In this document: positions 767 through 16,164 of the stretch, one piece after another
How the letters are laid out: every line of letters starts with the position of its first letter
How positions within the stretch are numbered: position 1 is the stretch's first letter
Origin: a virus
Taxonomy: Duplodnaviria > Heunggongvirae > Uroviricota > Caudoviricetes
Length of the DNA: 20,320 nucleotides
Direction: 5' to 3' (one strand)
IMG/VR virus record: IMGVR_UViG_2565956608_000010
Span: 1-20,320 of that record
The notes under the pieces: generated by a model
Database searches by the model: none
The model's input: the letters and a program-made list of their open reading frames with translations, nothing else
Told to the model about the DNA's origin: nothing
Made by a program: the position numbers and the translations under genes

Positions 767-1279
767 TTAAACGGTATGATATTTCATTCTGGCTGCCTCA
801 AAAGCCGCAGCGGCAAGTTCGGCAGTGTCATGGTATCCAAGGTTAATACACTTTCCAGACGCATTAATTCTTGCTCTCCATTTCCCGTACTTAGCATCCC
901 AAGACACGCCACGGTATCCAGATTTATTATTCTTCTGAATTTTCCTGTTTTGCATATTTTCGGAATGAGTGACAAGACGAAGATTTGATATCCGGTTATC
1001 TGTTCTTACCCTGTTGATGTGATCAATAAAACCATCGGGCATGGTGCCATAAACAATCAACCATGCCAGTCTGTGAGCAGGGCATGCTTTACCATTAATC
1101 ATAATCATTAAATACCCATCAGAATTTATTGATGAGCATTTCTTGAAAGCAAAACGAGAGTTCCATGTCAAAGTGGTCCTCTCTCTCCCCTGCCTCCATC
1201 TCCAGTGAAAGTCGCCTGATGATGGATTGTAATCAACAACAGAAAGCACCATTTCTGGCGTTAATTTTATTTCTTTCAT
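767..1279 (-). CDS. HNH homing-type endonuclease with C-terminal AP2-like DNA-binding domain (170 aa)
   Basis: HNH motif AHRLAWLIVYG...FIDHINRVRTDNRISNLRLVTHSENMQN, then GYRGVSWDAKYGKWRARI...LGYHDTAELAAAAFEAA typical of the AP2 domain in phage HNH endonucleases. Confidence 0.8.
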   Translation of the reverse strand: MKEIKLTPEMVLSVVDYNPSSGDFHWRWRQGRERTTLTWNSRFAFKKCSSINSDGYLMIMINGKACPAHRLAWLIVYGTMPDGFIDHINRVRTDNRISNLRLVTHSENMQNRKIQKNNKSGYRGVSWDAKYGKWRARINASGKCINLGYHDTAELAAAAFEAARMKYHTV

Positions 1280-1992: not shown

Positions 1993-2654
1993 GCGCCTTC
2001 TCCCTGTACCTGAATCAATGTGAGATTTCCGCAGAACACTGCGCCGGTATCGATATACATCTGGTTGGCAAATTTGAGCGGTTTCACTGCTGGCGTATGA
2101 CCAAAGATGAACATGTCCGCGCCTTTGATTTCTTTCACGATCCCGTCTTGTGAGTTGCTGATTCGTTCGCGGTTCCAGATTACCTGCTGATGATCAACTG
2201 GCTTTCCAAACTCGTATTCGTCACAAGGATAATCGGCGTGGCAGATGACATATTTTTTATCTTTGCTCACCAGTTCGATGATTAACGGAAGTTCATCTGC
2301 TTTATGGGCAAGAGCTTTAGCCAGAATTTCTTTGTCGTAATCGAGATTAAAGAACCAGCCACCGCCATTAAGCAGCCAGTGATTGACGTTTCCACGCTCT
2401 GATAAGCCATCAATCATCATGTGCTCATGGTTTCCACGTACAGCTCTGAACCAGGGGAATGTGATTAATTCCAGGCATTCAACGTTCTCTGCACCACGAT
2501 CAACCAAATCGCCAACCGAGATAAGCAGGTCTTTTTTGGTGTCGAATCCAATCGTATCCAGTTTGTTCATCAGGTTCGTGTAGCATCCGTGCAGGTCGCC
2601 AGCTACCCAAATATTTCGGTATTTGCTGCCATCAATTCTTTCGTAGATATTCAT
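1983..2654 (-). CDS. ninI: NinI serine/threonine protein phosphatase (lambda PPase homolog, 223 aa)
   Basis: Near-identical to lambda phosphatase as I recall it ([30 protein letters not shown] metallophosphatase motifs); start overlaps the ninG stop (ATGA). Confidence 0.95.
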
Positions 2655-3262
2655 GCTGCCTCACTTCTGCTGTTTCGCAGATTTTTAAGTTTCTGCTGAT
2701 ACTCCGCCTTGATGGCCCTGCACTCTTCGACAGTCCAGCGATGGCGGTTATGGTTTAATTCGATTTCGTCTACTGCTTCCTGCCCGATGCGATTAATCAG
2801 TTCGACGCGATACGGAACGAGATTTCCGCTTTTGTGCTGGTTGCACACCACGCATTGCTTGTGAATATTGCGTTCATCAAATCGGAGTTGAGGTGCCGCA
2901 GCAGTTGTCCGGTAATGTCCGGCATCCCACTGAGCAGACGTGAGCGTTCCGCACGAGATACATGGTAAGTCGCGGTCTCTTTCTCTGATGAAGGCGTTTA
3001 CGGCTTGTTGGGCTTGTTTAATCCAGTAACTGCGGGGCTTTAAGGCGAGTTTTCGAATCTTAAGTTTATCTTTCTGTTTCTGCTCCTCTCGTCGTCGTTT
3101 CTTCTCTGCTGCTTTTTCCGCTTTTTCGCGTTCTTTACTTCGTCGTTCGAGTGCTATCTTGGTTCCACACTCTGGAGAGCACCACCACTGATTAGCGAAT
3201 GCAGGATGAAACCATTCCCGACATTTATCGTTTTTACATCGTCTTCGCGCTGGTTTAGCCAT
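2651..3262 (-). CDS. ninG: NinG (Rap) recombination-associated protein, 203 aa
   Basis: Cys-rich N-terminus ([12 protein letters not shown]...WCSPECG) and central CISCG...CVVCNQHK match lambda NinG; ATG overlaps the ninF stop. Confidence 0.9.
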
Positions 3263-3425
3263 CGTCTTCTTCCTCGTGCATCGAGCTATTCGGATCGCTC
3301 ATCAGTTCTGCACAGCAGTGCTCACACACGTGAACTTCCAGCACATGCAGCTTCTGACCGCAGTTAGCGCACGTTAAAGCTCGCTCGACGCTTTCTTGTT
3401 CGTAACTTCGATTTTGGTCAATCAC
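3255..3425 (-). CDS. ninF: NinF (56 aa, GTG start)
   Basis: Manual translation gives [56 protein letters not shown], matching lambda NinF; GTG start overlaps the ninE stop (GTGA). Confidence 0.8.
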
Positions 3426-3604
3426 CTTGTTTTCCTCGCACGTTCTCTAAGCCACCGGATATCCCACAGGTGAGCCGTGTAGTTGAAGGTTTTTACGTCA
3501 GATTCTTTTGGGATTGGCTTGGGTTTATTTCTGGAGCGTTTCGTTGGAAGGTATTTGCAGTTTTCGCAGATTATGTCGGTGAAACTTCGTCGCTGTCGTC
3601 TCAT
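3422..3604 (-). CDS. ninE: NinE (60 aa)
   Basis: Internal Met of the 80-aa track ORF gives [60 protein letters not shown], near-identical to lambda NinE; ATG overlaps the ninB stop. Confidence 0.85.
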
Positions 3605-4041
3605 GCCGCCCTGTCTCCCCATCGCGCTTTCCATTCGAGAGCCAGTCGCGCTTCGTCTGACCACTTAACGCCACGCTCTGTACCGAATGCCTGTATAAGC
3701 TCTAATAGCTCCGCAAATTCGCTTACACGCATCCTGCTGGTTGACTGGCCTATTACCACAAAGCCATTCCCGGCAAGGTTAGGAACAACATCCTGCTGCT
3801 TTAATGCTGCGGTAAACACACACTTCCAGCTTTCTGCATCCAGCCAGCGACCATGCCATTCAACCTGACGAGAGACGTCACCAAGGCAAGCCCAAAGCTT
3901 TCGATTCTGGTCTAAGCTGCGGTTGCGTTCCTGAATGCTTACTACGATTGGTTTGGTTGGGTCTGGAAGGATTTGCTGGATAGCTTGAATGGCGTTCTGC
4001 TGATGGATGGGGCTTCTTAGTTCAAATGTTAGTTTCCTCAT
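3601..4041 (-). CDS. ninB: NinB recombination protein (146 aa)
   Basis: From [34 protein letters not shown]... the sequence is near-identical to lambda NinB; the upstream extension of the track ORF is assumed not translated. Confidence 0.9.
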
Positions 4042-4210
4042 CACCCTTAATCCTCTCGAAGTTCTTCTCGAAGTTTTTGGTGTCGAACACTGACCACCGA
4101 CCATTATGAATGGCGTATGCACAGGTCTTGTTTTCGTCCTGATAAACTACCCTTACCTTGCGATAAAACCGTGGCTTAATCTCTCTGAATATTTGCTCGC
4201 TCATGCTCAC
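4022..4210 (-). CDS. hypothetical protein (62 aa)
   Basis: ORF with RBS AAGGAG 5 nt upstream of the ATG; overlaps the ninB start by 20 nt; no family recognised. Confidence 0.5.
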   Translation of the reverse strand: MSMSEQIFREIKPRFYRKVRVVYQDENKTCAYAIHNGRWSVFDTKNFEKNFERIKGDEETNI

Positions 4211-4214
4211 TCCT

Positions 4215-4430
4215 TCACTTTAAATCCAGACTCCGGATTATTCTGTTGCGCTGAAACTCATTGTTGAGTCTGAACAACCGCCGAAGAACACGGTCACGCG
4301 GATAGCGTCGTGCGGCAGGTGAATGCTCATACAACTCATCAAGCGGTAAACTGGACGATGAACGATACCGATACCAACGCGCCAACTCTTCACGAAAATT
4401 AGCCCTGACAAGCTCAGCTATCGTACTCAT
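4215..4430 (-). CDS. hypothetical protein (71 aa, basic/Arg-rich)
   Basis: ORF with strong RBS AGGAGG 8 nt upstream of the ATG; no family recognised. Confidence 0.55.
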   Translation of the reverse strand: MSTIAELVRANFREELARWYRYRSSSSLPLDELYEHSPAARRYPRDRVLRRLFRLNNEFQRNRIIRSLDLK

Positions 4431-4555
4431 TTCTTAAAACCTCCTAAAACGCATTCTGACGAACTTTTACATCTCGCCACCCAATTACATGCCTGAGCAA
4501 TGATTAGGTCGCCACAGGCTTATTTATGTGGCTTAAAATCGATTTTGCTTACATA

Positions 4556-4586
4556 CAAACAAAAGACCTGCGATTACCAGCAGGCC
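4556..4586 (-). terminator. putative Rho-independent terminator downstream of HNH endonuclease 2 (possibly bidirectional)
   Basis: Hairpin GGCCUGC / GCAGGUC (7 bp with one G-U pair, 8-nt loop) followed on the minus strand by UCUUUUGUUUG; on the plus strand the same hairpin is followed by a T-run (4587..4599). Confidence 0.45.
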
Positions 4587-4587
4587 T

Positions 4588-5199
4588 TTATCTTTTTTTA
4601 ACACGCTTTCGAGTCCTTTTAGATTTTTCCTTAAGATATTCCGCAAGTTTATCCTCATCATTATTAAATTGAGATAAAAGCTCATGCTCGCAATTAAGTG
4701 CTTTACTCGCATAAGTTCCATATAGTTTCTTTCTTGCTAGTGCTGCTATGAATGCTGCATCTTCTTTGCTATCGAAATACCCTAACGATATTGTCTTATT
4801 TTTATAACCAACATAAGACTTCCACCTGCCAGTTGTCTTATCCCAAGACACTCCAATCGCACCGGATGTGTTTAACCTATTCCCTACAATGTTTCTTGCA
4901 TTCTGCTCCTCTGTTGCCAGTCTTAGATTTGAAATCCTATTGTCAAGTCTGTTCCCATTTACATGATCAATAAACTTAGGAGGCCATTTTTTGTATACAT
5001 AGAACCAAGCAAGTCTATGCGCATAATACAAAACATTATTTATGCTAATGCATATATAACCACCACTAACACCTCCAGCAATACTACCTTTTACTCTTAC
5101 TACTGAATTTGTTTTTAGCCATTTAAATATTCCTGTTTCTGAGTCATATGATAATGTTGACAGAAGCTCATCGTGATCAATTAGTTTTTTTATTCGCAT
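4588..5199 (-). CDS. HNH homing-type endonuclease with AP2-like domain, second copy (203 aa), AT-rich
   Basis: AHRLAWFYVYKKWPPKFIDHVNGNRLDNRISNLRLATEEQN (HNH) and GVSWDKTTGRWKSYV...LGYFDSKEDAAFIAALA (AP2-like); same architecture as 767..1279; codon usage looks AT-rich compared with the neighbours. Confidence 0.8.
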   Translation of the reverse strand: MRIKKLIDHDELLSTLSYDSETGIFKWLKTNSVVRVKGSIAGGVSGGYICISINNVLYYAHRLAWFYVYKKWPPKFIDHVNGNRLDNRISNLRLATEEQNARNIVGNRLNTSGAIGVSWDKTTGRWKSYVGYKNKTISLGYFDSKEDAAFIAALARKKLYGTYASKALNCEHELLSQFNNDEDKLAEYLKEKSKRTRKRVKKR

Positions 5200-5277
5200 A
5201 AAGAATATACTTAATAATATATACAGTAAGAACCATTAGTAACGATAACCCTGCTATCAGCTCAGTGATGTAGATAG

Positions 5278-5547
5278 TCATTGCTTCATCTCCCTTTCCA
5301 TTTCATCAATGTCAACGTCATCAGGAAGATGGGAGCAATACGCCGCTATACCATGATGATTTATCTCATACCCTTTGAACGTTACCATCTGGCGCGTAAT
5401 CTCAACTTCGTTCAGGAATCCGTCATCGCATAACTGCCTGGCTATTTTCGATTTGGTCTGGATTATTGGTAGTGCCTGTTCTTTCAAAGCGTATGATATT
5501 TGTGCATCCCATGCCTTTTCGAGAATGGCTAATTGTTTTTTATTCAT
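5278..5547 (-). CDS. hypothetical protein (89 aa)
   Basis: ORF whose ATG directly abuts the primase-helicase stop (TAAATG); no family recognised. Confidence 0.5.
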   Translation of the reverse strand: MNKKQLAILEKAWDAQISYALKEQALPIIQTKSKIARQLCDDGFLNEVEITRQMVTFKGYEINHHGIAAYCSHLPDDVDIDEMEREMKQ

Positions 5548-9231: not shown

Positions 9232-9948
<717 letters not shown>

Positions 9949-10116
9949 TTGTGTGAAACAGGCTGCAGAAATGCAGTCTTTTTCGGTTATCGATGTCACC
10001 ACTGGTAAATCGTTTACCATAAGTCTTGATCTATTTGGTTTACCGTGTCACTCTTGGTGCACCACTTTACCAATGGTAAAACATTAACCAGCAATGACAT
10101 CGTTAACCAGGAGTTT

Positions 10117-11139
10117 ATGATGAAGAAATATGCTATATGGAACAACAAGGGAGGAACAGGGAAAACAAGCCTGTCATTTCAAGCTATTTGCAGATATGCA
10201 GAAATTCACCCGCTTGAGCGCGTGTTGGTTATTGATGTGTGCCCACAGGCAAACTTGTCAGAGCTTTTTCTTGGGGGGTTAATAGGTAATGGAAGCATAA
10301 ACTTATTGACTAGGCATGATATAAATAATAGATGTACTTTGGGTGGCTACTTCCAAATGCGCCTCCCGACGCCTTATCAAAAACCCATTGTTGATGCCCA
10401 CGATTATTTGACACACCCAAAAAAATTCAACGAACATATTCCAGCCAATATATCGTTGGTATGCGGTGACCCGCTTCTTGAGCTTCAAGCAAACGCCATC
10501 AACACTCTTGCTAATCAGCAGATTCCAGGAACAAATGCATGGGTAAGCATCATTGATTGGATTAATGATCTTATTAAAGATCTAAATGATGAGTACGATG
10601 TTTTATTTATTGACTGTAATCCTAGTTTTTCAATTTATACTCAAATAGCATTAGCTGCTGTAGAAAAGCTCATCTTGCCAGTTATGGCTGATGATTCCTC
10701 TCGTCGCGCCATTCAAAATGCTTTCTCTTTGATTTATGGATTAAAGTTGCCATCTGATATTTATGCATCCTACGCATTTGCAAACAAACTTACCGCGGTG
10801 AGCAGACCACTACCCAAAGTTCATATGATCGCAAAAAACCGTCTTACACAGTATATGGGGCCTGCATCAGCCTATGCCGCAGTTCTAAAATCAATCGATA
10901 ATGATATTCAGCAACTATTACTAAGTAACCCTGAAATTTTCGACTTCGAAAATATTGAAGAGGGAGTGGTAAATATTAAAGATTTTCAGACAACTGGTGT
11001 TGTTGCCTTTGCTAAAGGATGTCCATTTTCGATCCTACCAACAGGTAGTGTACGAGTTATGAACAGAAGGGTAAAAGTTAATGCCCCATATAAACAATCT
11101 TGCTTAGAAGCCATTGATAGGATGGTGGTTAAACTATAA
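10117..11139 (+). CDS. ParA/MinD-like P-loop ATPase (340 aa from MMKKYAIWNNKGGTGKTS) in the rexAB position; function unknown, candidate exclusion/defence gene
   Basis: Deviant Walker A KGGTGKTS near the N-terminus, ParA-type motif VLVIDVCPQANLS and later VLFIDCNPS; RBS AGGAG 4 nt upstream of ATGATG at 10117; AT-rich by eye; flanked by the cI terminus and a terminator before OL. Confidence 0.7.
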   Translation: MMKKYAIWNNKGGTGKTSLSFQAICRYAEIHPLERVLVIDVCPQANLSELFLGGLIGNGSINLLTRHDINNRCTLGGYFQMRLPTPYQKPIVDAHDYLTHPKKFNEHIPANISLVCGDPLLELQANAINTLANQQIPGTNAWVSIIDWINDLIKDLNDEYDVLFIDCNPSFSIYTQIALAAVEKLILPVMADDSSRRAIQNAFSLIYGLKLPSDIYASYAFANKLTAVSRPLPKVHMIAKNRLTQYMGPASAYAAVLKSIDNDIQQLLLSNPEIFDFENIEEGVVNIKDFQTTGVVAFAKGCPFSILPTGSVRVMNRRVKVNAPYKQSCLEAIDRMVVKL

Positions 11140-11147
11140 ATCAACCA

Positions 11148-11174
11148 ACCCGGCCCCAGTGCCGGGTTTTCTTT
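11148..11174 (+). terminator. Rho-independent terminator after the ParA-like gene
   Basis: ACCCGGC-CCCAGT-GCCGGGT stem-loop followed by TTTCTTTG. Confidence 0.6.
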
Positions 11175-11331: not shown

Positions 11332-11394
11332 AACCATCTGCGGTGATAAATTATCTCTGGCGGTGTTGACATAAATACCACTGGCGGTGATACT
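11332..11394 (+). promoter_or_regulatory. Left operator OL3-OL2-OL1 with promoter pL
   Basis: OL3 AACCATCTGCGGTGATA 11332..11348; OL2 TATCTCTGGCGGTGTTG 11352..11368; OL1 TACCACTGGCGGTGATA 11376..11392; pL -35 TTGACA 11366..11371, 17-bp spacer, -10 GATACT 11389..11394; matches lambda OL/pL as recalled. Confidence 0.9.
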
Positions 11395-11642: not shown

Positions 11643-12026
11643 ATGACACGCAGAACTCAGTTCAAAGGCAATTCACGTTCTCGTCGTCGTGAGCGTTTAA
11701 AGGCAAAGGCATTAGCTAACGGCGTGCTGGCCCGCGAAGAAGCAATAAGTTCAGAAGTATTACACCGCCCTACTCTAAGCAGAGCGCAGATTCAGGCTAA
11801 AGGTACTCACGAAACGCCTGAGCGCATAGAAGACGCTAAGCCAATTAAGTTCATGGCACAGGACGTGATCTGGCAACAGAAAGAATACAGACGCAATCTG
11901 GAGCGAGCGGCCATTGTGTACGCGAATGAGTTTGGACATAAGCAACCAGAAACTGGTGTATGTCTTCCAAACGTAGCCATTTACGCGGCAGGCTACCGGA
12001 AATCCAAACAACTGACGGCGAGGTGA
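11643..12026 (+). CDS. N: N-like transcription antiterminator (127 aa, arginine-rich N-terminal motif)
   Basis: First gene of the pL operon after a ~240-nt structured leader; Arg-rich motif TRRTQFKGNSRSRRRERLKAKALA; RBS AGGAGG before the ATG; not lambda N by sequence but the same position and features. Confidence 0.75.
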   Translation: MTRRTQFKGNSRSRRRERLKAKALANGVLAREEAISSEVLHRPTLSRAQIQAKGTHETPERIEDAKPIKFMAQDVIWQQKEYRRNLERAAIVYANEFGHKQPETGVCLPNVAIYAAGYRKSKQLTAR

Positions 12027-12587: not shown

Positions 12588-12797
12588 CGGTGAATCTCCA
12601 TCATTCTCTCTGTAGGGGGTGAATAGAGTTTATCCGATTTCTCGCTGTAGGGGTACACGAGAACCACCGAGCCTGATGTGGTTAAAAGACAGGCACAATC
12701 TTTACTACCGCAAGCCACGCAGTGAAATGGGTGTGACTTGTGTTGGTCGCCAGAAAATGAAATTAGGCAGCAAACCACTTATTTGAGAGGAATTAAT

Positions 12798-13421
12798 ATG
12801 TCATCAATCCGCTTAACTACGAGAATGAAAGAGGAAATCGCTCGTAACGCTTTAATTAAGTCCGGGGTGTTCACTGAACTTGAAGAAGTAACAAAGTTAA
12901 AGAACCAGCTTGCACTTGACGCCAGAGTTATTGCGTTTGGCGGGAAAAAGAAAACCGAAGAAGTGGACCAGCTGGCATCAAAGTTAATGGCTGCAAGTGA
13001 GGAACTTCAAAAGCTGGGATGTTCATTTTACTCATGCGATGTCAGTTCATGTTCGATTTATCTGACTGTATCTGGAAGAAGGGTTGGCTGGCATTCATAC
13101 GGAAAAGACGGCAACGGTGAAGATATATTGCTCCCTACCCCCGACAAAGATAAATGCATGTTTGACGCAGAACACAAAATAACAAAAAGGTTTGATGAAA
13201 TCTGCGCATTGCAACAAAAACTTGAAGCCAGGAAAAAGGATATAGAATCAAACGTATGGGCTGCTTTGAACTCAGTCACAACAGTTAAGCGACTTATTGA
13301 AGTTTGGCCTGAAAGCAAAGAGTTGCTACCAAAAGAAGCAGATAAAGCAAGTGCAGCACTTCCTGCTTTACGGGTAGAAGATTTGAATAAGATGATTGGA
13401 CTTCCTTCCGAGGCCGCATAA
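12798..13421 (+). CDS. hypothetical protein (207 aa from MSSIRLTTRMKEEIA), coiled-coil-rich; occupies the ral/ea10 region of the pL operon
   Basis: Internal Met of the track ORF preceded by RBS GAGAGGA; followed by a terminator hairpin; no family recognised. Confidence 0.6.
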   Translation: MSSIRLTTRMKEEIARNALIKSGVFTELEEVTKLKNQLALDARVIAFGGKKKTEEVDQLASKLMAASEELQKLGCSFYSCDVSSCSIYLTVSGRRVGWHSYGKDGNGEDILLPTPDKDKCMFDAEHKITKRFDEICALQQKLEARKKDIESNVWAALNSVTTVKRLIEVWPESKELLPKEADKASAALPALRVEDLNKMIGLPSEAA

Positions 13422-13436
13422 TCGGCCTTTATTTTT
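13412..13436 (+). terminator. Rho-independent terminator-like hairpin at the end of the 207-aa gene
   Basis: GGCCG-CATAAT-CGGCC followed by TTTATTTTTGG; the stop codon lies in the loop. Confidence 0.5.
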
Positions 13437-13645: not shown

Positions 13646-13816
13646 ATGCAACAGTTCGCTATTGCAGGGGCGGCATCGGTTCGCCCTTTCAACCCGATTT
13701 TATCGGTACAGCATTCACGAAAAAATATTTTAACCGGAGCAGACTTTAAACAACCAAGAATGAAAAGTTTGCTCGAAAAGCTTTGGGATATTTTGAAACA
13801 ACAAGGCCGCCCATGA
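13646..13816 (+). CDS. cIII: CIII-like protein (56 aa)
   Basis: Manual translation MQQFAIAGAASVRPFNPILSVQHSRKNILTGADFKQPRMKSLLEKLWDILKQQGRP; resembles lambda CIII (MQYAIAG..., ...LIDILNQPG); RBS AGGAG before the ATG; below the length cut-off of the ORF track. Confidence 0.7.
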   Translation: MQQFAIAGAASVRPFNPILSVQHSRKNILTGADFKQPRMKSLLEKLWDILKQQGRP

Positions 13817-13971
13817 GTTTTACAGATAACTGGTCAGACGAAGAATTCATTCGTCAGATGAAAGAATTAATCGGTAACGAAGGAGATATTCATGTCACTT
13901 GCAACCACAGTGAAGGAGAGCAAGTTACAGAGGCGCATGTACACGCAGAAAGCTCTCTGGTATCGCCATAA
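13813..13971 (+). CDS. small protein in the kil position (52 aa), function unknown
   Basis: ATG overlaps the cIII stop (ATGA); MSFTDNWSDEEFIRQMKELIGNEGDIHVTCNHSEGEQVTEAHVHAESSLVSP; assigned by position only. Confidence 0.4.
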   Translation: MSFTDNWSDEEFIRQMKELIGNEGDIHVTCNHSEGEQVTEAHVHAESSLVSP

Positions 13972-14070
13972 TGGTGACCGCGAAGGAATGCGGGTATGCC
14001 TTAATTTGTCCAGAGTCGAAGTATTAAATCAGCGTTATTTCCTTGGTCCATGTCCATTCTGAGGTGAATT

Positions 14071-14778
14071 ATGGATTTAAATAAATTCGATGAGCCATTC
14101 AGCCCTGAAGATATTGAATGGCGAATACAGCAAAGCGGTAAAACACGCGATGGCAAGGTGCGGGCTATGGTGCTGGCTTATGTCACGAACCGGGCAATCA
14201 TGAAACGCCTGGACGATGTTTGCGGCAAAGCAGGATGGCGCAATGAATACCGCGATATTCCCAACAACGGCGGCGTTGAATGCGGCATATCAATAAAGAT
14301 TGATTCCGAATGGGTAACCAAATGGGATGCTGCTGAAAACACGCAGGTAGAAGCCGTCAAAGGTGGTCGTTCCGGTGCAATGAAGCGTGCTGCCGTTCAG
14401 TGGGGAATCGGTCGGTATCTGTATAACCTTGAGGGAGGTTTCGCACAAACATCTCTCGATAAAAAGCAGGGGTGGCACAGGGCAAAACTGAAGGATGGAA
14501 CAGGATTTTACTGGCTCCCTCCATCGCTGCCGGGATGGGCAATCCCAGCATCAGATAACAAACCATCACCAGAAAATACCAACCAGAAATCTCTATCGGT
14601 TGACTGCGAACGAATCCTGAAAGACTTCAGCGATTATGCTTCGACAGAAACTGACAAGAAAAAACTCATCGAACGTTATCAGCATGACTGGCAATTAATG
14701 GCTGGCAATGAGGATGCGCAGGCTAAATGCGTTCAGGTAATGAACATCAGAGTTAACGAACTAAAACAGGCGGCATAA
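14071..14778 (+). CDS. single-strand annealing protein, probably Rad52/Sak-like family (235 aa)
   Basis: Segment GGRSGAMKRAAVQWGIGRYLYNL resembles the conserved Rad52-family segment; RBS GAGGTG; directly followed by ssb and an exonuclease; not similar to lambda Bet or RecT as recalled. Confidence 0.6.
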   Translation: MDLNKFDEPFSPEDIEWRIQQSGKTRDGKVRAMVLAYVTNRAIMKRLDDVCGKAGWRNEYRDIPNNGGVECGISIKIDSEWVTKWDAAENTQVEAVKGGRSGAMKRAAVQWGIGRYLYNLEGGFAQTSLDKKQGWHRAKLKDGTGFYWLPPSLPGWAIPASDNKPSPENTNQKSLSVDCERILKDFSDYASTETDKKKLIERYQHDWQLMAGNEDAQAKCVQVMNIRVNELKQAA

Positions 14779-15294
14779 ATGGCAAGCAGAGGCGTAAATA
14801 AGGTGATCATTATTGGTCGCCTTGGGCATGATCCAGAAATCAGATATTCGCCATCAGGAACGGCATTTGCAAACCTTACAGTTGCTACGTCAGAACAATG
14901 GCGTGATAAGCAAACTGGAGAGCAAAAGGAGCAGACGGAGTGGCACCGTGTGGTAATGAGCGGGAAACTGGCAGAAATTGCCAGCGAATATCTGCGAAAA
15001 GGCTCTGAGGTTTATCTTGAAGGCAAATTGCGGACAAGAAAATGGCAGGATCAAAGCGGACAGGATCGGTTCACTACCGAAGTTATCGTGGGCGTTGGTG
15101 GAACCATGCAAATGCTTGGTGGCAAGCAAGGAAGCAATGAACAGTCTTCACCTCAGCGAAATAACGGCCAGCAACAAAGACAGCAATCTCAGCAGCAGGG
15201 GAATCACAGCGAACCACCTATGGATTTTGACGACGATATACCCTTTGCGCCAGTAACTCTCCCCTTCCCTCGTCACGCTATTCACGCAATTTAA
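14779..15294 (+). CDS. ssb: single-stranded DNA-binding protein SSB with a 15-aa extension past the DDDIPF motif (171 aa)
   Basis: Strong similarity to E. coli SSB (MASRGVNKV...TEWHRVV...[15 protein letters not shown]...[12 protein letters not shown]...[11 protein letters not shown]); the ORF continues [15 protein letters not shown] before the stop. Confidence 0.9.
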
Positions 15295-15302
15295 GGACTT
15301 AC

Positions 15303-15851
15303 ATGAATCACTTAATGGTTGACCTTGAAACAATGGGCAACGGGCCATACGCGCCAGTTATTTCTATTGGGGCGGTATTCTTTGACCCGAATACCGGAGA
15401 AACAGGAGAAGAGTTCTCGGTAAATATCTCGCTTGAGTCATCAATGCGATATCGGGCGCGTCCTGACGCTTCAACGATTTTATGGTGGCTGGAACAGAGT
15501 GAAGAAGCCAGAAAATCGCTAACCAGCAACACTCAGGAGCTTTCAACGGCTCTTTCATGGTTATCTGAATTCATCATAAAGAACGCTAACCACAAATTCG
15601 TTCAGGTTTGGGGGAATGGAGCATCATTTGACTGCGTTATTCTCCGCAACAGTTATTCGCTGACAGGGCAGCCAGTTCCGTGGCAGTGGTGGAATGACCG
15701 CGACGTAAGAACAATCGTCGAACTTGGGAAGGTAATAGGATTCAACCCTAAGCGAGATATGCCATTCAAAGGAACTCGCCACAACGCGCTTGATGATGCC
15801 ATTCACCAAGCCAAATACGTTTCAGCGATCTGGAAAAAGTTAGCTAAATAA
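15303..15851 (+). CDS. DEDDh-type 3'-5' exonuclease (182 aa)
   Basis: Exo motifs VDLETMG (Exo I), WGNGASFD (Exo II) and HNALDDAIHQA (Exo III with His); RBS AAGGA before the ATG. Confidence 0.8.
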   Translation: MNHLMVDLETMGNGPYAPVISIGAVFFDPNTGETGEEFSVNISLESSMRYRARPDASTILWWLEQSEEARKSLTSNTQELSTALSWLSEFIIKNANHKFVQVWGNGASFDCVILRNSYSLTGQPVPWQWWNDRDVRTIVELGKVIGFNPKRDMPFKGTRHNALDDAIHQAKYVSAIWKKLAK

Positions 15852-15867
15852 TCAACAGGAGAAAACC

Positions 15868-16164
15868 ATGCCAGCGCCTCTGTATGGTGCGGATGACGCG
15901 CGCCGCTGTTCCGGCAATTCCGTATCGGAGGTGCTGGATAAGTTCAGAAAAAACTACGATCGGATAATGTCGCTACCGCAGGAAACGAAAGAGGAAAAGG
16001 AATTTCGCCACTGTATATGGCTTGCAGAGAAAGAAGAACGAGAGCGAATTTACCAGACATCAATCCGACCATTCCGCAAAGCCACATATACCCACTTCCC
16101 TGAACATATCGACCCGCGCCTGCGTAATTACCGCTCACGTTATGGTGCTATCAGTAATGACTGA
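15868..16164 (+). CDS. hypothetical protein (98 aa)
   Basis: ORF with RBS AGGAG 7 nt upstream of the ATG; no family recognised. Confidence 0.55.

Follow-up and report, generated by a model that had tools for sequence, protein, structure and literature searches.

A DexA-like exonuclease in an annealase, SSB and Abc2 recombination module of a lambdoid prophage

The recombination genes in a 20,320-nt stretch of DNA from a virus of the class Caudoviricetes (IMG/VR record IMGVR_UViG_2565956608_000010; the whole stretch is referred to as the window) form a lambdoid Rec module of the functional type that combines an anti-RecBCD protein, a protein that binds single-stranded DNA (SSB), a nuclease and an annealase (PMC12315714). 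They are ordered as a Sak/Erf-chimera annealase, an SSB, a DEDDh exonuclease and Abc2 (Table 1). The puzzle posed by this locus is that a recombination module carries a 3'-5' exonuclease, a class of enzyme which normally destroys recombinogenic 3' tails. We consider it reasonably likely, with a rough probability of 0.6, that the module works like the systems of phages P22 and HK620, with RecBCD modified by Abc2 carrying out the resection and the exonuclease trimming 3' ends.

Genes of the module and their relatives

A preliminary description of the window, made from its letters, had placed an annealase, an SSB and a 3'-5' exonuclease in the pL operon. All three open reading frames (ORFs) lie on the + strand, and their coordinates proved exact. 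The annealase is a chimera, in which a Rad52/Sak-type annealing domain with the Rad52-type beta-beta-beta-alpha fold (residues 1-160) is followed by a disordered linker (163-175) and a three-helix bundle (179-234), the latter modelled with a pLDDT of about 88. Classification with hidden Markov models (HMM), which the preliminary description had called for, assigns the protein to Rad52_Rad22 (PF04098; residues 4-136, E = 1.7e-25, 90.2 bits against a gathering cut-off of 20.3), and no Pfam match to the ERF annealing domain (PF04404) was found at E <= 0.01, in agreement with the type first proposed. The biochemically characterised Sak of Lactococcus phage ul36 is 58% identical to residues 6-159 (over 155 residues, E = 3e-65). 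P22 Erf, when compared by BLAST, aligns with residues 157-235 only, with 63% identity between this C-terminal part and Erf residues 134-205. The PHROG label "Erf-like" is therefore misleading, since only the tail is related to Erf and PF04404 is missing. An identical domain swap was already noted in the genome paper of phage epsilon34 in 2008 (PMC2629481). As a member of the Rad52/Sak family, the annealase is predicted to form rings and to anneal single-stranded DNA (ssDNA). The Erf-type C-terminal domain is common to both Abc2-linked annealases, this one and P22 Erf, and all close relatives examined have Abc2 along with this annealase, with different genes in between.

The gene following the exonuclease codes for a full-length Abc2 (PF11043, E = 3.1e-61; phrog_656, E = 1.8e-55), which shares 92% identity with P22 Abc2 and has the same IRPF segment around Pro68. 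RecC is bound by P22 Abc2, which has been proposed to hijack RecBCD for the supply of an exonuclease and the loading of the phage recombinase (PMC9836394), and it has been described as turning RecBCD into a 5'-3' exonuclease (PMC5928155). With Abc2 in the adjoining position, the locus is to be compared with P22 and HK620 and not with lambda. No match to the lambda Exo/YqaJ, Beta/RecT or Gam families was found in Pfam and PHROG among the early-left operon ORFs scanned, so that the locus does not belong to Lambda Red, as had been stated at the outset. The accompanying remark that no Gam-like gene is present holds by homology; by function it does not, as Abc2, the functional counterpart of Gam, had been missed. 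The SSB is of the bacterial type, as first described (PF00436, E = 2.1e-38; TIGR00621, 183.8 bits with a cut-off of 54).

The exonuclease matches the Rv2179c-like family over the whole profile (PF16473, positions 1-177 of 177, E = 2.6e-73, 245.9 bits). Its catalytic residues D7, E9, D110, H160 and D165 (D, E, D, H-x4-D) are intact and are kept in at least 98% of 114 homologues. The nearest solved structure by sequence is that of T4 DexA (8KEL/8KEN, E = 9e-14), and the RNase-H-like DEDD fold is closest to that of DexA, which agrees with the earlier assignment to a putative DEDDh 3'-5' exonuclease with a fold unlike that of lambda Exo. The 3'-5' polarity and the preference for DNA are predicted from DexA, which acts on DNA, and Rv2179c, which acts on RNA; the PF16473 family holds both. 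T4 DexA is a 3'-5' DNA exonuclease, active in the scavenging of host DNA and in recombination-dependent intron homing (PMC12153337), and the word "exoribonuclease" used by Pfam should therefore not exclude a role on DNA. In contrast to DexA, the exonuclease is 45 residues shorter, lacks the extra DexA loops and stands in an entirely different genomic context. Its W130 aligns with DexA W152, while DexA D169 aligns with F147/N148 and is not conserved, and the tetramer-forming D90 has no equivalent. W152 and D169 are reported to be the readers of 5-hydroxymethylcytosine (5hmC) in DexA (PMC12153337). Residue 148 (window 15744-15746) is Asn here and Asp in mEpX2, in Bas106 and in 81 of the 114 relatives.

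Table 1 Features of the window (positions in nt; lengths in amino acids, aa)
Feature	Position	Strand	Remarks
HNH_3 + AP2 endonuclease gene	767-1279	-	free-standing; early-right (nin) region
NinG/Rap	2651-3262
NinB/Orf	3601-4122
HNH_3 + AP2 endonuclease gene	4588-5199	-	free-standing; early-right (nin) region
cI-type repressor	9235-9948		seen as cI-like
ParA/MinD-like ATPase	10045-11139	+	AAA_31, E = 1.3e-16
Terminator-like hairpin	11147-11168
Promoter-like site	11366-11394		TTGACA-17-GATACT, pL-like
N antiterminator	11643-12026
SieB			strand opposite to operon genes
Nmad5 protein	12738-13421	+	PF18757, E = 1.5e-68; early-left operon
Terminator-like hairpin	13410-13429
cIII	13646-13816
Small acidic ORF	13813-13971	+	52 aa from ATG 13813 (mechanical ORF begins at TTG 13783); slot of P22 Arf, directly 5' of annealase
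Small ORF	13892-14062	+	56 aa; AGGAG ribosome-binding site; stop abuts annealase ribosome-binding site
Annealase	14071-14778	+	235 aa; single-strand annealing protein; Rad52/Sak-type N part, Erf-type C part
SSB	14779-15294	+	171 aa; bacterial type; OB fold, Gln-rich linker, acidic tip
Extension capping the SSB tip	15247-15291	+	15 codons; SSB residues 157-171
Exonuclease	15303-15851	+	182 aa; DexA-like, DEDDh, predicted 3'-5'
Abc2	15868-16164	+	98 aa; anti-RecBCD protein
xis	19051-19269	+
int	19247-20320	+	runs to window end

The same four-gene block is found at 85–92% DNA identity in mEpX2, mEp235, epsilon34, g341c and NM-3. The first four of these carry the same genes in the same order and represent the "ES18 functional type" of Casjens, Smith and colleagues (2025), with the nuclease of epsilon34 referred to as "DnaQ" (PMC12315714); modules of the epsilon34/mEpX2 type show allelic differences only, such as N148 of the exonuclease here and D148 in mEpX2. 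Among 5426 complete E. coli genomes, 397 contain this annealase, 173 this allele of the exonuclease and 140 the entire block. The genes are labelled by PGAP as Rad52/Rad22 family protein, SSB, 3'-5' exonuclease and phage anti-RecBCD protein; NCBIfam is without a model for the annealase, the exonuclease or Abc2. In the genome paper of epsilon34, the probable recombination genes were given as Abc2, SSB, the Erf chimera and a nuclease described as "unusual in this context" (PMC2629481), and a survey of 325 lambdoid phages published in 2025 includes this combination among its Rec-module functional types, treats the nuclease of epsilon34 as a legitimate member of the module and explicitly mentions "DnaQ-like 3'-to-5' nucleases" (PMC12315714). 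As the module is thus already described in the literature and widely annotated, down to routine RefSeq annotation, the present findings do not add a new kind of system.

The likeness to P22 (Arf-Erf-Abc1-Abc2) lies in Abc2, in the Erf C-terminal domain and in the early-left position after cIII/kil. Unlike in P22, whose annealing domain is ERF PF04404, the annealing domain is PF04098, Arf is not recognisable, and Abc1, to which no module protein has any similarity, is absent, with SSB and the exonuclease in its place. The experimentally tested HkaM-Sak4-SSB-Abc2 system of HK620 has the same layout of small ORF, annealase, SSB and Abc2, but its annealase has a RecA fold, its SSB belongs to another family and it lacks the exonuclease; prophages of Providencia and Photorhabdus pair HK620-type Sak4 and SSB-2 with the exonuclease described here. 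With Lambda Red the module shares a Rad52-superfamily annealase, a means of handling RecBCD and the position in the operon. It differs by the absence of YqaJ/lambda-Exo and Gam, by a nuclease of different fold and predicted opposite polarity, and in that RecBCD would be modified instead of blocked. The vaccinia E9/I3 pair is a precedent for recombination by annealing that a 3'-5' exonuclease initiates and an SSB stimulates (PMC9415595), although the nuclease is in that case the proofreading domain of a polymerase and there is no separate annealase.

The exonuclease in close relatives and in other lineages

An alignment of five phages shows the exonuclease to be a precise insertion or deletion of approximately 560 bp (about 15295-15855), which extends from the ssb stop codon to the ribosome-binding site of abc2 and has conserved flanks; the gene begins 8 bp past ssb. 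Between the annealase and Abc2, BTP1 carries Abc1, with neither SSB nor exonuclease, ECP1 carries SSB (as do HK75, N7 and IME10 by DNA match and annotation), Sf6 carries SSB and an HNH endonuclease, the window and mEpX2 carry SSB and the exonuclease, and Bas106 carries SSB, the HNH endonuclease and the exonuclease. ECP1, N7 and IME10 are viable plaque-forming phages with annealases 97–98% identical to the one in the window and without the exonuclease. Since near-identical annealases occur in five arrangements, some of which lack the exonuclease, the annealase does not need it. Of the E. coli prophages with this annealase, about 35% also have the exonuclease in the block. A role of the exonuclease as the resection partner of the annealase is therefore unsupported at this locus and is not favoured. 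No promoter that would allow its expression in the lysogen was seen in or beside the cassette, the nearest promoter-like site (13819-13846) being about 1.5 kb upstream, and promoter-like sites are fewer in this region than in shuffled sequence.

The wider distribution of the exonuclease subfamily was considered in eight enterobacterial lineages with at least 66% identity. In all eight, the annealase is followed by SSB and then by the exonuclease, each directly adjoining the next. The annealase is of the Rad52/Sak type in three lineages (the E. coli/Salmonella type found here, Pectobacterium and Serratia), a true ERF in three others (Pantoea/Mixta, Klebsiella and a metagenomic enterobacterial contig), and a Sak4 with a RecA fold, accompanied by the unrelated SSB-2, in the remaining two (Providencia and Photorhabdus). 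Because it follows SSB behind three unrelated annealase families in eight lineages, the exonuclease is probably a genuine recombination accessory. Two versions alone have Abc2 behind it, that of E. coli/Salmonella and that of Klebsiella, the Klebsiella Abc2 being divergent; in the other lineages this slot holds small proteins, either unrelated or of unassigned function. Cryptic relatives of Abc2 were looked for in this slot in Pantoea, Pectobacterium and Providencia, with negative results from both BLAST and PHROGs. A sister clade of approximately 60% identity is located beside xis/int or after DndB/YfdP-type genes, without a Rec module.

The genes occupying the slot after the exonuclease in the modules without Abc2 (L034, 3572-4096; L036, 3571-3972; L026, 4570-4869; L016, 4619-4951; L018, 4623-4817, in coordinates of the respective loci) include two members of phrog_38486, a weakly related pair from Pantoea and Pectobacterium and a very acidic protein of 64 aa from Providencia, and are candidate anti-RecBCD or accessory factors that would be new. 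The Photorhabdus prophage has, directly upstream of its Sak4-SSB-exonuclease trio, a gene for a DNA_pol_B_exo2 protein (PF10108; L035, 1008-1694), which is a predicted 3'-5' exonuclease, and its module thus encodes two such enzymes. In mEp460_ev081 (L005, 2078-4549), a DexA-like DEDDh domain forms residues 642-813 of an 823-aa protein whose first 640 residues match no Pfam family. This protein adjoins xis/int, has no annealase nearby and is named "exodeoxyribonuclease ... CP-933P" in the style of RecE; the name suggests a 5'-3' enzyme, while the domain predicts the opposite polarity.

Proposed mechanism and its alternatives

If the module works as in P22 and HK620, Abc2 would bind RecC of the host RecBCD and convert the complex into a Chi-independent degrader of the 5' strand that leaves 3' ssDNA tails, as suggested by the 92% identity to P22 Abc2 and by the published work on P22. 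By analogy with Sak4/SSB of HK620, where stimulation of the annealase by SSB requires the acidic tip of the latter, the phage SSB would coat the ssDNA and help to load the annealase, which would pair the 3' tail with complementary ssDNA. The three-helix bundle of the annealase, which is of the Erf type, would be a likely docking module for a partner protein. The exonuclease would not be the primary resection nuclease but a facultative processor of 3' ends, whose task may be to remove non-homologous 3' tails, or flaps, from annealed intermediates. It would probably act on SSB-coated DNA, like E. coli Exonuclease I with SSB, to which its sequence relation is limited to the shared fold, and like DexA at T4 homing breaks.

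Several points weigh against this proposal. The exonuclease, being predicted to degrade DNA from the 3' end, would attack the very tails that RecBCD with Abc2 is proposed to make, and the authors of the 2025 catalogue found the presence of a 3'-5' nuclease curious, as such nucleases usually inhibit recombination (PMC12315714). The hijack model for Abc2 is itself still partly hypothetical (PMC9836394), and the proteins of the module are known here from their sequences. Trios without a recognisable Abc2 next to them exist in Pectobacterium, Pantoea/Mixta, Providencia and Serratia, where the exonuclease could be the resecting enzyme, and the 3–4 kb flanks examined around them yielded no call of a second nuclease. 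The tip of the SSB, which is capped as described below, may moreover not engage partners as a free DDDIPF tip would.

The alternatives differ in the work they leave to the exonuclease. It could resect double-stranded ends 3'-to-5', with SSB and the annealase pairing the resulting 5' tails and Abc2 merely neutralising RecBCD. This would be in keeping with the trio being constant across the eight lineages, behind three unrelated annealase families and with two SSB types, with the trios lacking both a recognisable Abc2 and another nuclease in the flanks examined, with the digestion of double-stranded DNA and whole phage genomes by T4 DexA in vitro (PMC12153337), and with the two-component annealing of poxviruses, which is initiated by a 3' exonuclease and established for vaccinia E9/I3 (PMC9415595). 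We nevertheless regard it as unlikely at this locus, where Abc2 is present and the exonuclease dispensable: the viable phages ECP1, N7, IME10 and HK75 combine this annealase, SSB and Abc2 and lack a nuclease, the exonuclease is part of the block in only the stated fraction of E. coli prophages with this annealase, and the sister clade beside xis/int has no Rec module at all. Known pairs of annealase and exonuclease, such as Beta-Exo and RecT-RecE, are specific partners, and the association of a single exonuclease subfamily with three unrelated annealases points to SSB or the DNA as its partner instead of the annealase. The suggestion in the preliminary description that the nuclease, as partner of the annealase, would set a resection polarity different from that of Red is for the same reasons disfavoured, the exonuclease being facultative and Abc2 being present. 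That the trio could be a self-contained annealing machine of reversed polarity, with the SSB tail recruiting the exonuclease as a phage counterpart of poxvirus E9/I3, appears more doubtful still; if true, it would explain why one exonuclease subfamily comes after SSB behind three annealase families, including in modules where Abc2 is not recognisable and no other nuclease was seen close by.

A different role would be that of an independent cassette in a permissive intergenic site, coding for a nuclease that serves defence or exclusion (an "HREX"-like enzyme directed against the modified DNA of T-even competitors), or for an enzyme of counter-defence or nucleotide salvage. The clean, gene-sized presence or absence of the gene would fit such a role, as would EcD, a DexA homologue from E. 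coli that reportedly cleaves no DNA other than that with 5hmC and gives protection against T4 (PMC12153337). The tryptophan W130 at the place of DexA W152 fits as well, and so do the relatives outside Rec modules, some of which adjoin xis/int or follow DndB-like genes, while the one in mEp460 forms the C-terminal end of the 823-aa protein. Expression in the lysogen, which defence would require, is however unlikely, because the gene sits in a repressed early-left operon, closely behind ssb and without a promoter-like site nearby. PADLOC returned for the exonuclease just a weak and generic DEDDh match (E = 2e-4), the residue beside the equivalent of DexA D169 is the less common Asn, and chance insertion would hardly place the gene strictly next to SSB in eight lineages, which together make this role improbable. 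EcD (HAK9828821.1), the sole DexA homologue of E. coli to have been tested, was sought via its cloning primers; it was absent from the 120 closest homologues, and the primers gave nothing or chance matches against viral contigs and a genome. Finally, the exonuclease could be a homing helper which widens gene-conversion tracts at breaks made by HNH endonucleases, as DexA does in T4 intron homing. The HNH cassette is directly upstream of the exonuclease in Bas106 and occupies the same slot in Sf6, the window holds two further HNH-AP2 genes, and the homing role of DexA is published (PMC12153337). The window and mEpX2 have the exonuclease without an adjoining HNH gene, though, Sf6 has the HNH gene without the exonuclease, and the association with SSB and annealase is far more consistent than that with HNH, so that this explanation is very improbable.

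The proposal based on P22 and HK620 thus leaves the role of the exonuclease as an acknowledged question, flagged as curious in the 2025 catalogue, between a 3'-end trimmer recruited by SSB and a resection enzyme of reversed polarity. As the gene follows SSB behind Rad52-, ERF- and Sak4-type annealases alike, the question can be approached experimentally, and its answer, whichever way it falls, would be of consequence for recombineering toolkits that combine an annealase with an SSB.

The SSB tip, the operon and other genes

The acidic tip DDDIPF corresponds to residues 151-156 of the SSB and is followed by 15 further residues, so that the protein has no free terminal Phe; TIGR00621 stops at residue 156, and the last residue in curated SSB models is the Phe of the tip. 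The same cap is present after DDDIPF in the SSBs of Klebsiella phage BIS47, Vibrio phage phiV039C and Proteus phage V3, which read ...DDDIPF-AP(I/V)GL(P/Q)Y(G/P)R(N/H)..I, and the consensus of the C-terminal cap is AP[IV]GLP[YF]xR[NH]x[IL][HY]xI. Since these three SSBs come from unrelated phages, the cap represents a conserved motif instead of a scar. For the classical binding of partners by SSB, a free terminal Phe is regarded as necessary, and capped phage SSBs may therefore have a set of partners other than that of classical SSBs. The possibility that the cap travels with the exonuclease was ruled out, as the cap occurs in ECP1, where the exonuclease is missing, and the exonuclease-linked SSBs of other genera have free tips. 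In Sf6 and Bas106, an in-frame HNH endonuclease cassette of 444 bp lies exactly between the tip and the cap (window 15246/15247; approximately 3438-3884 of locus L002 in Sf6 and 3197-3643 of locus L004 in Bas106). This leaves the SSB of these two phages with IPF as its free end, and the last 14 ssb codons pass to the endonuclease ORF, which reads into them. The arrangement looks like a homing-type insertion polymorphism within the Rec module. No description of a capped SSB tip was found in the literature searched, and it offers a small separate lead as to how phage SSBs might avoid or redirect the host SSB-interaction network.

The cI-like repressor, the pL-like promoter site, the N antiterminator and an unbroken run of + strand genes after cIII, which finishes with xis and int, support the early-left (pL) operon of a lambdoid prophage as the setting of the module, in line with the preliminary description. 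In the block from 14071 to 16164 the genes are separated by 0–16 bp, with cIII on one side and ea/xis/int on the other. No RNA families were detected in the window with Rfam. The avoidance of Chi sites was considered as a signature of Abc2 phages and discarded, since the absence of sites is uninformative where only 0.5 are expected in 20 kb.

Two small ORFs precede the annealase, overlap by 80 nt in different frames and belong each to its own PHROG family, both labelled "recombinase". The acidic one matches phrog_2123 (E = 3.4e-41, residues 11-62) and has just a 7-residue "SDEEFI" motif in common with P22 Arf (E = 0.018 in pairwise BLAST); its position suggests that it is a member of the module. 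The other matches phrog_1723 (E = 9.4e-36), with gp34 of mEpX2 and gp29 of Sf6 as annotated homologues, and has a strong ribosome-binding site and coupling to the annealase start.

Further genes of the window include a ParA/MinD-like ATPase, whose match is far under the cut-offs of partition equivalogs and which takes the place of lambda rexAB, with the cI repressor on one side and the pL-like promoter on the other. It may be an exclusion or defence gene expressed in the lysogen; PADLOC gave no match for it. A protein with the nucleotide-modification-associated domain 5 (Nmad5) is encoded in the early-left operon, and NinB/Orf and NinG/Rap genes are also present. The second of the two HNH-AP2 genes is in a stretch of low GC content (0.37–0.41, approximately 4000–5500), and both are probably mobile genes of the homing type.

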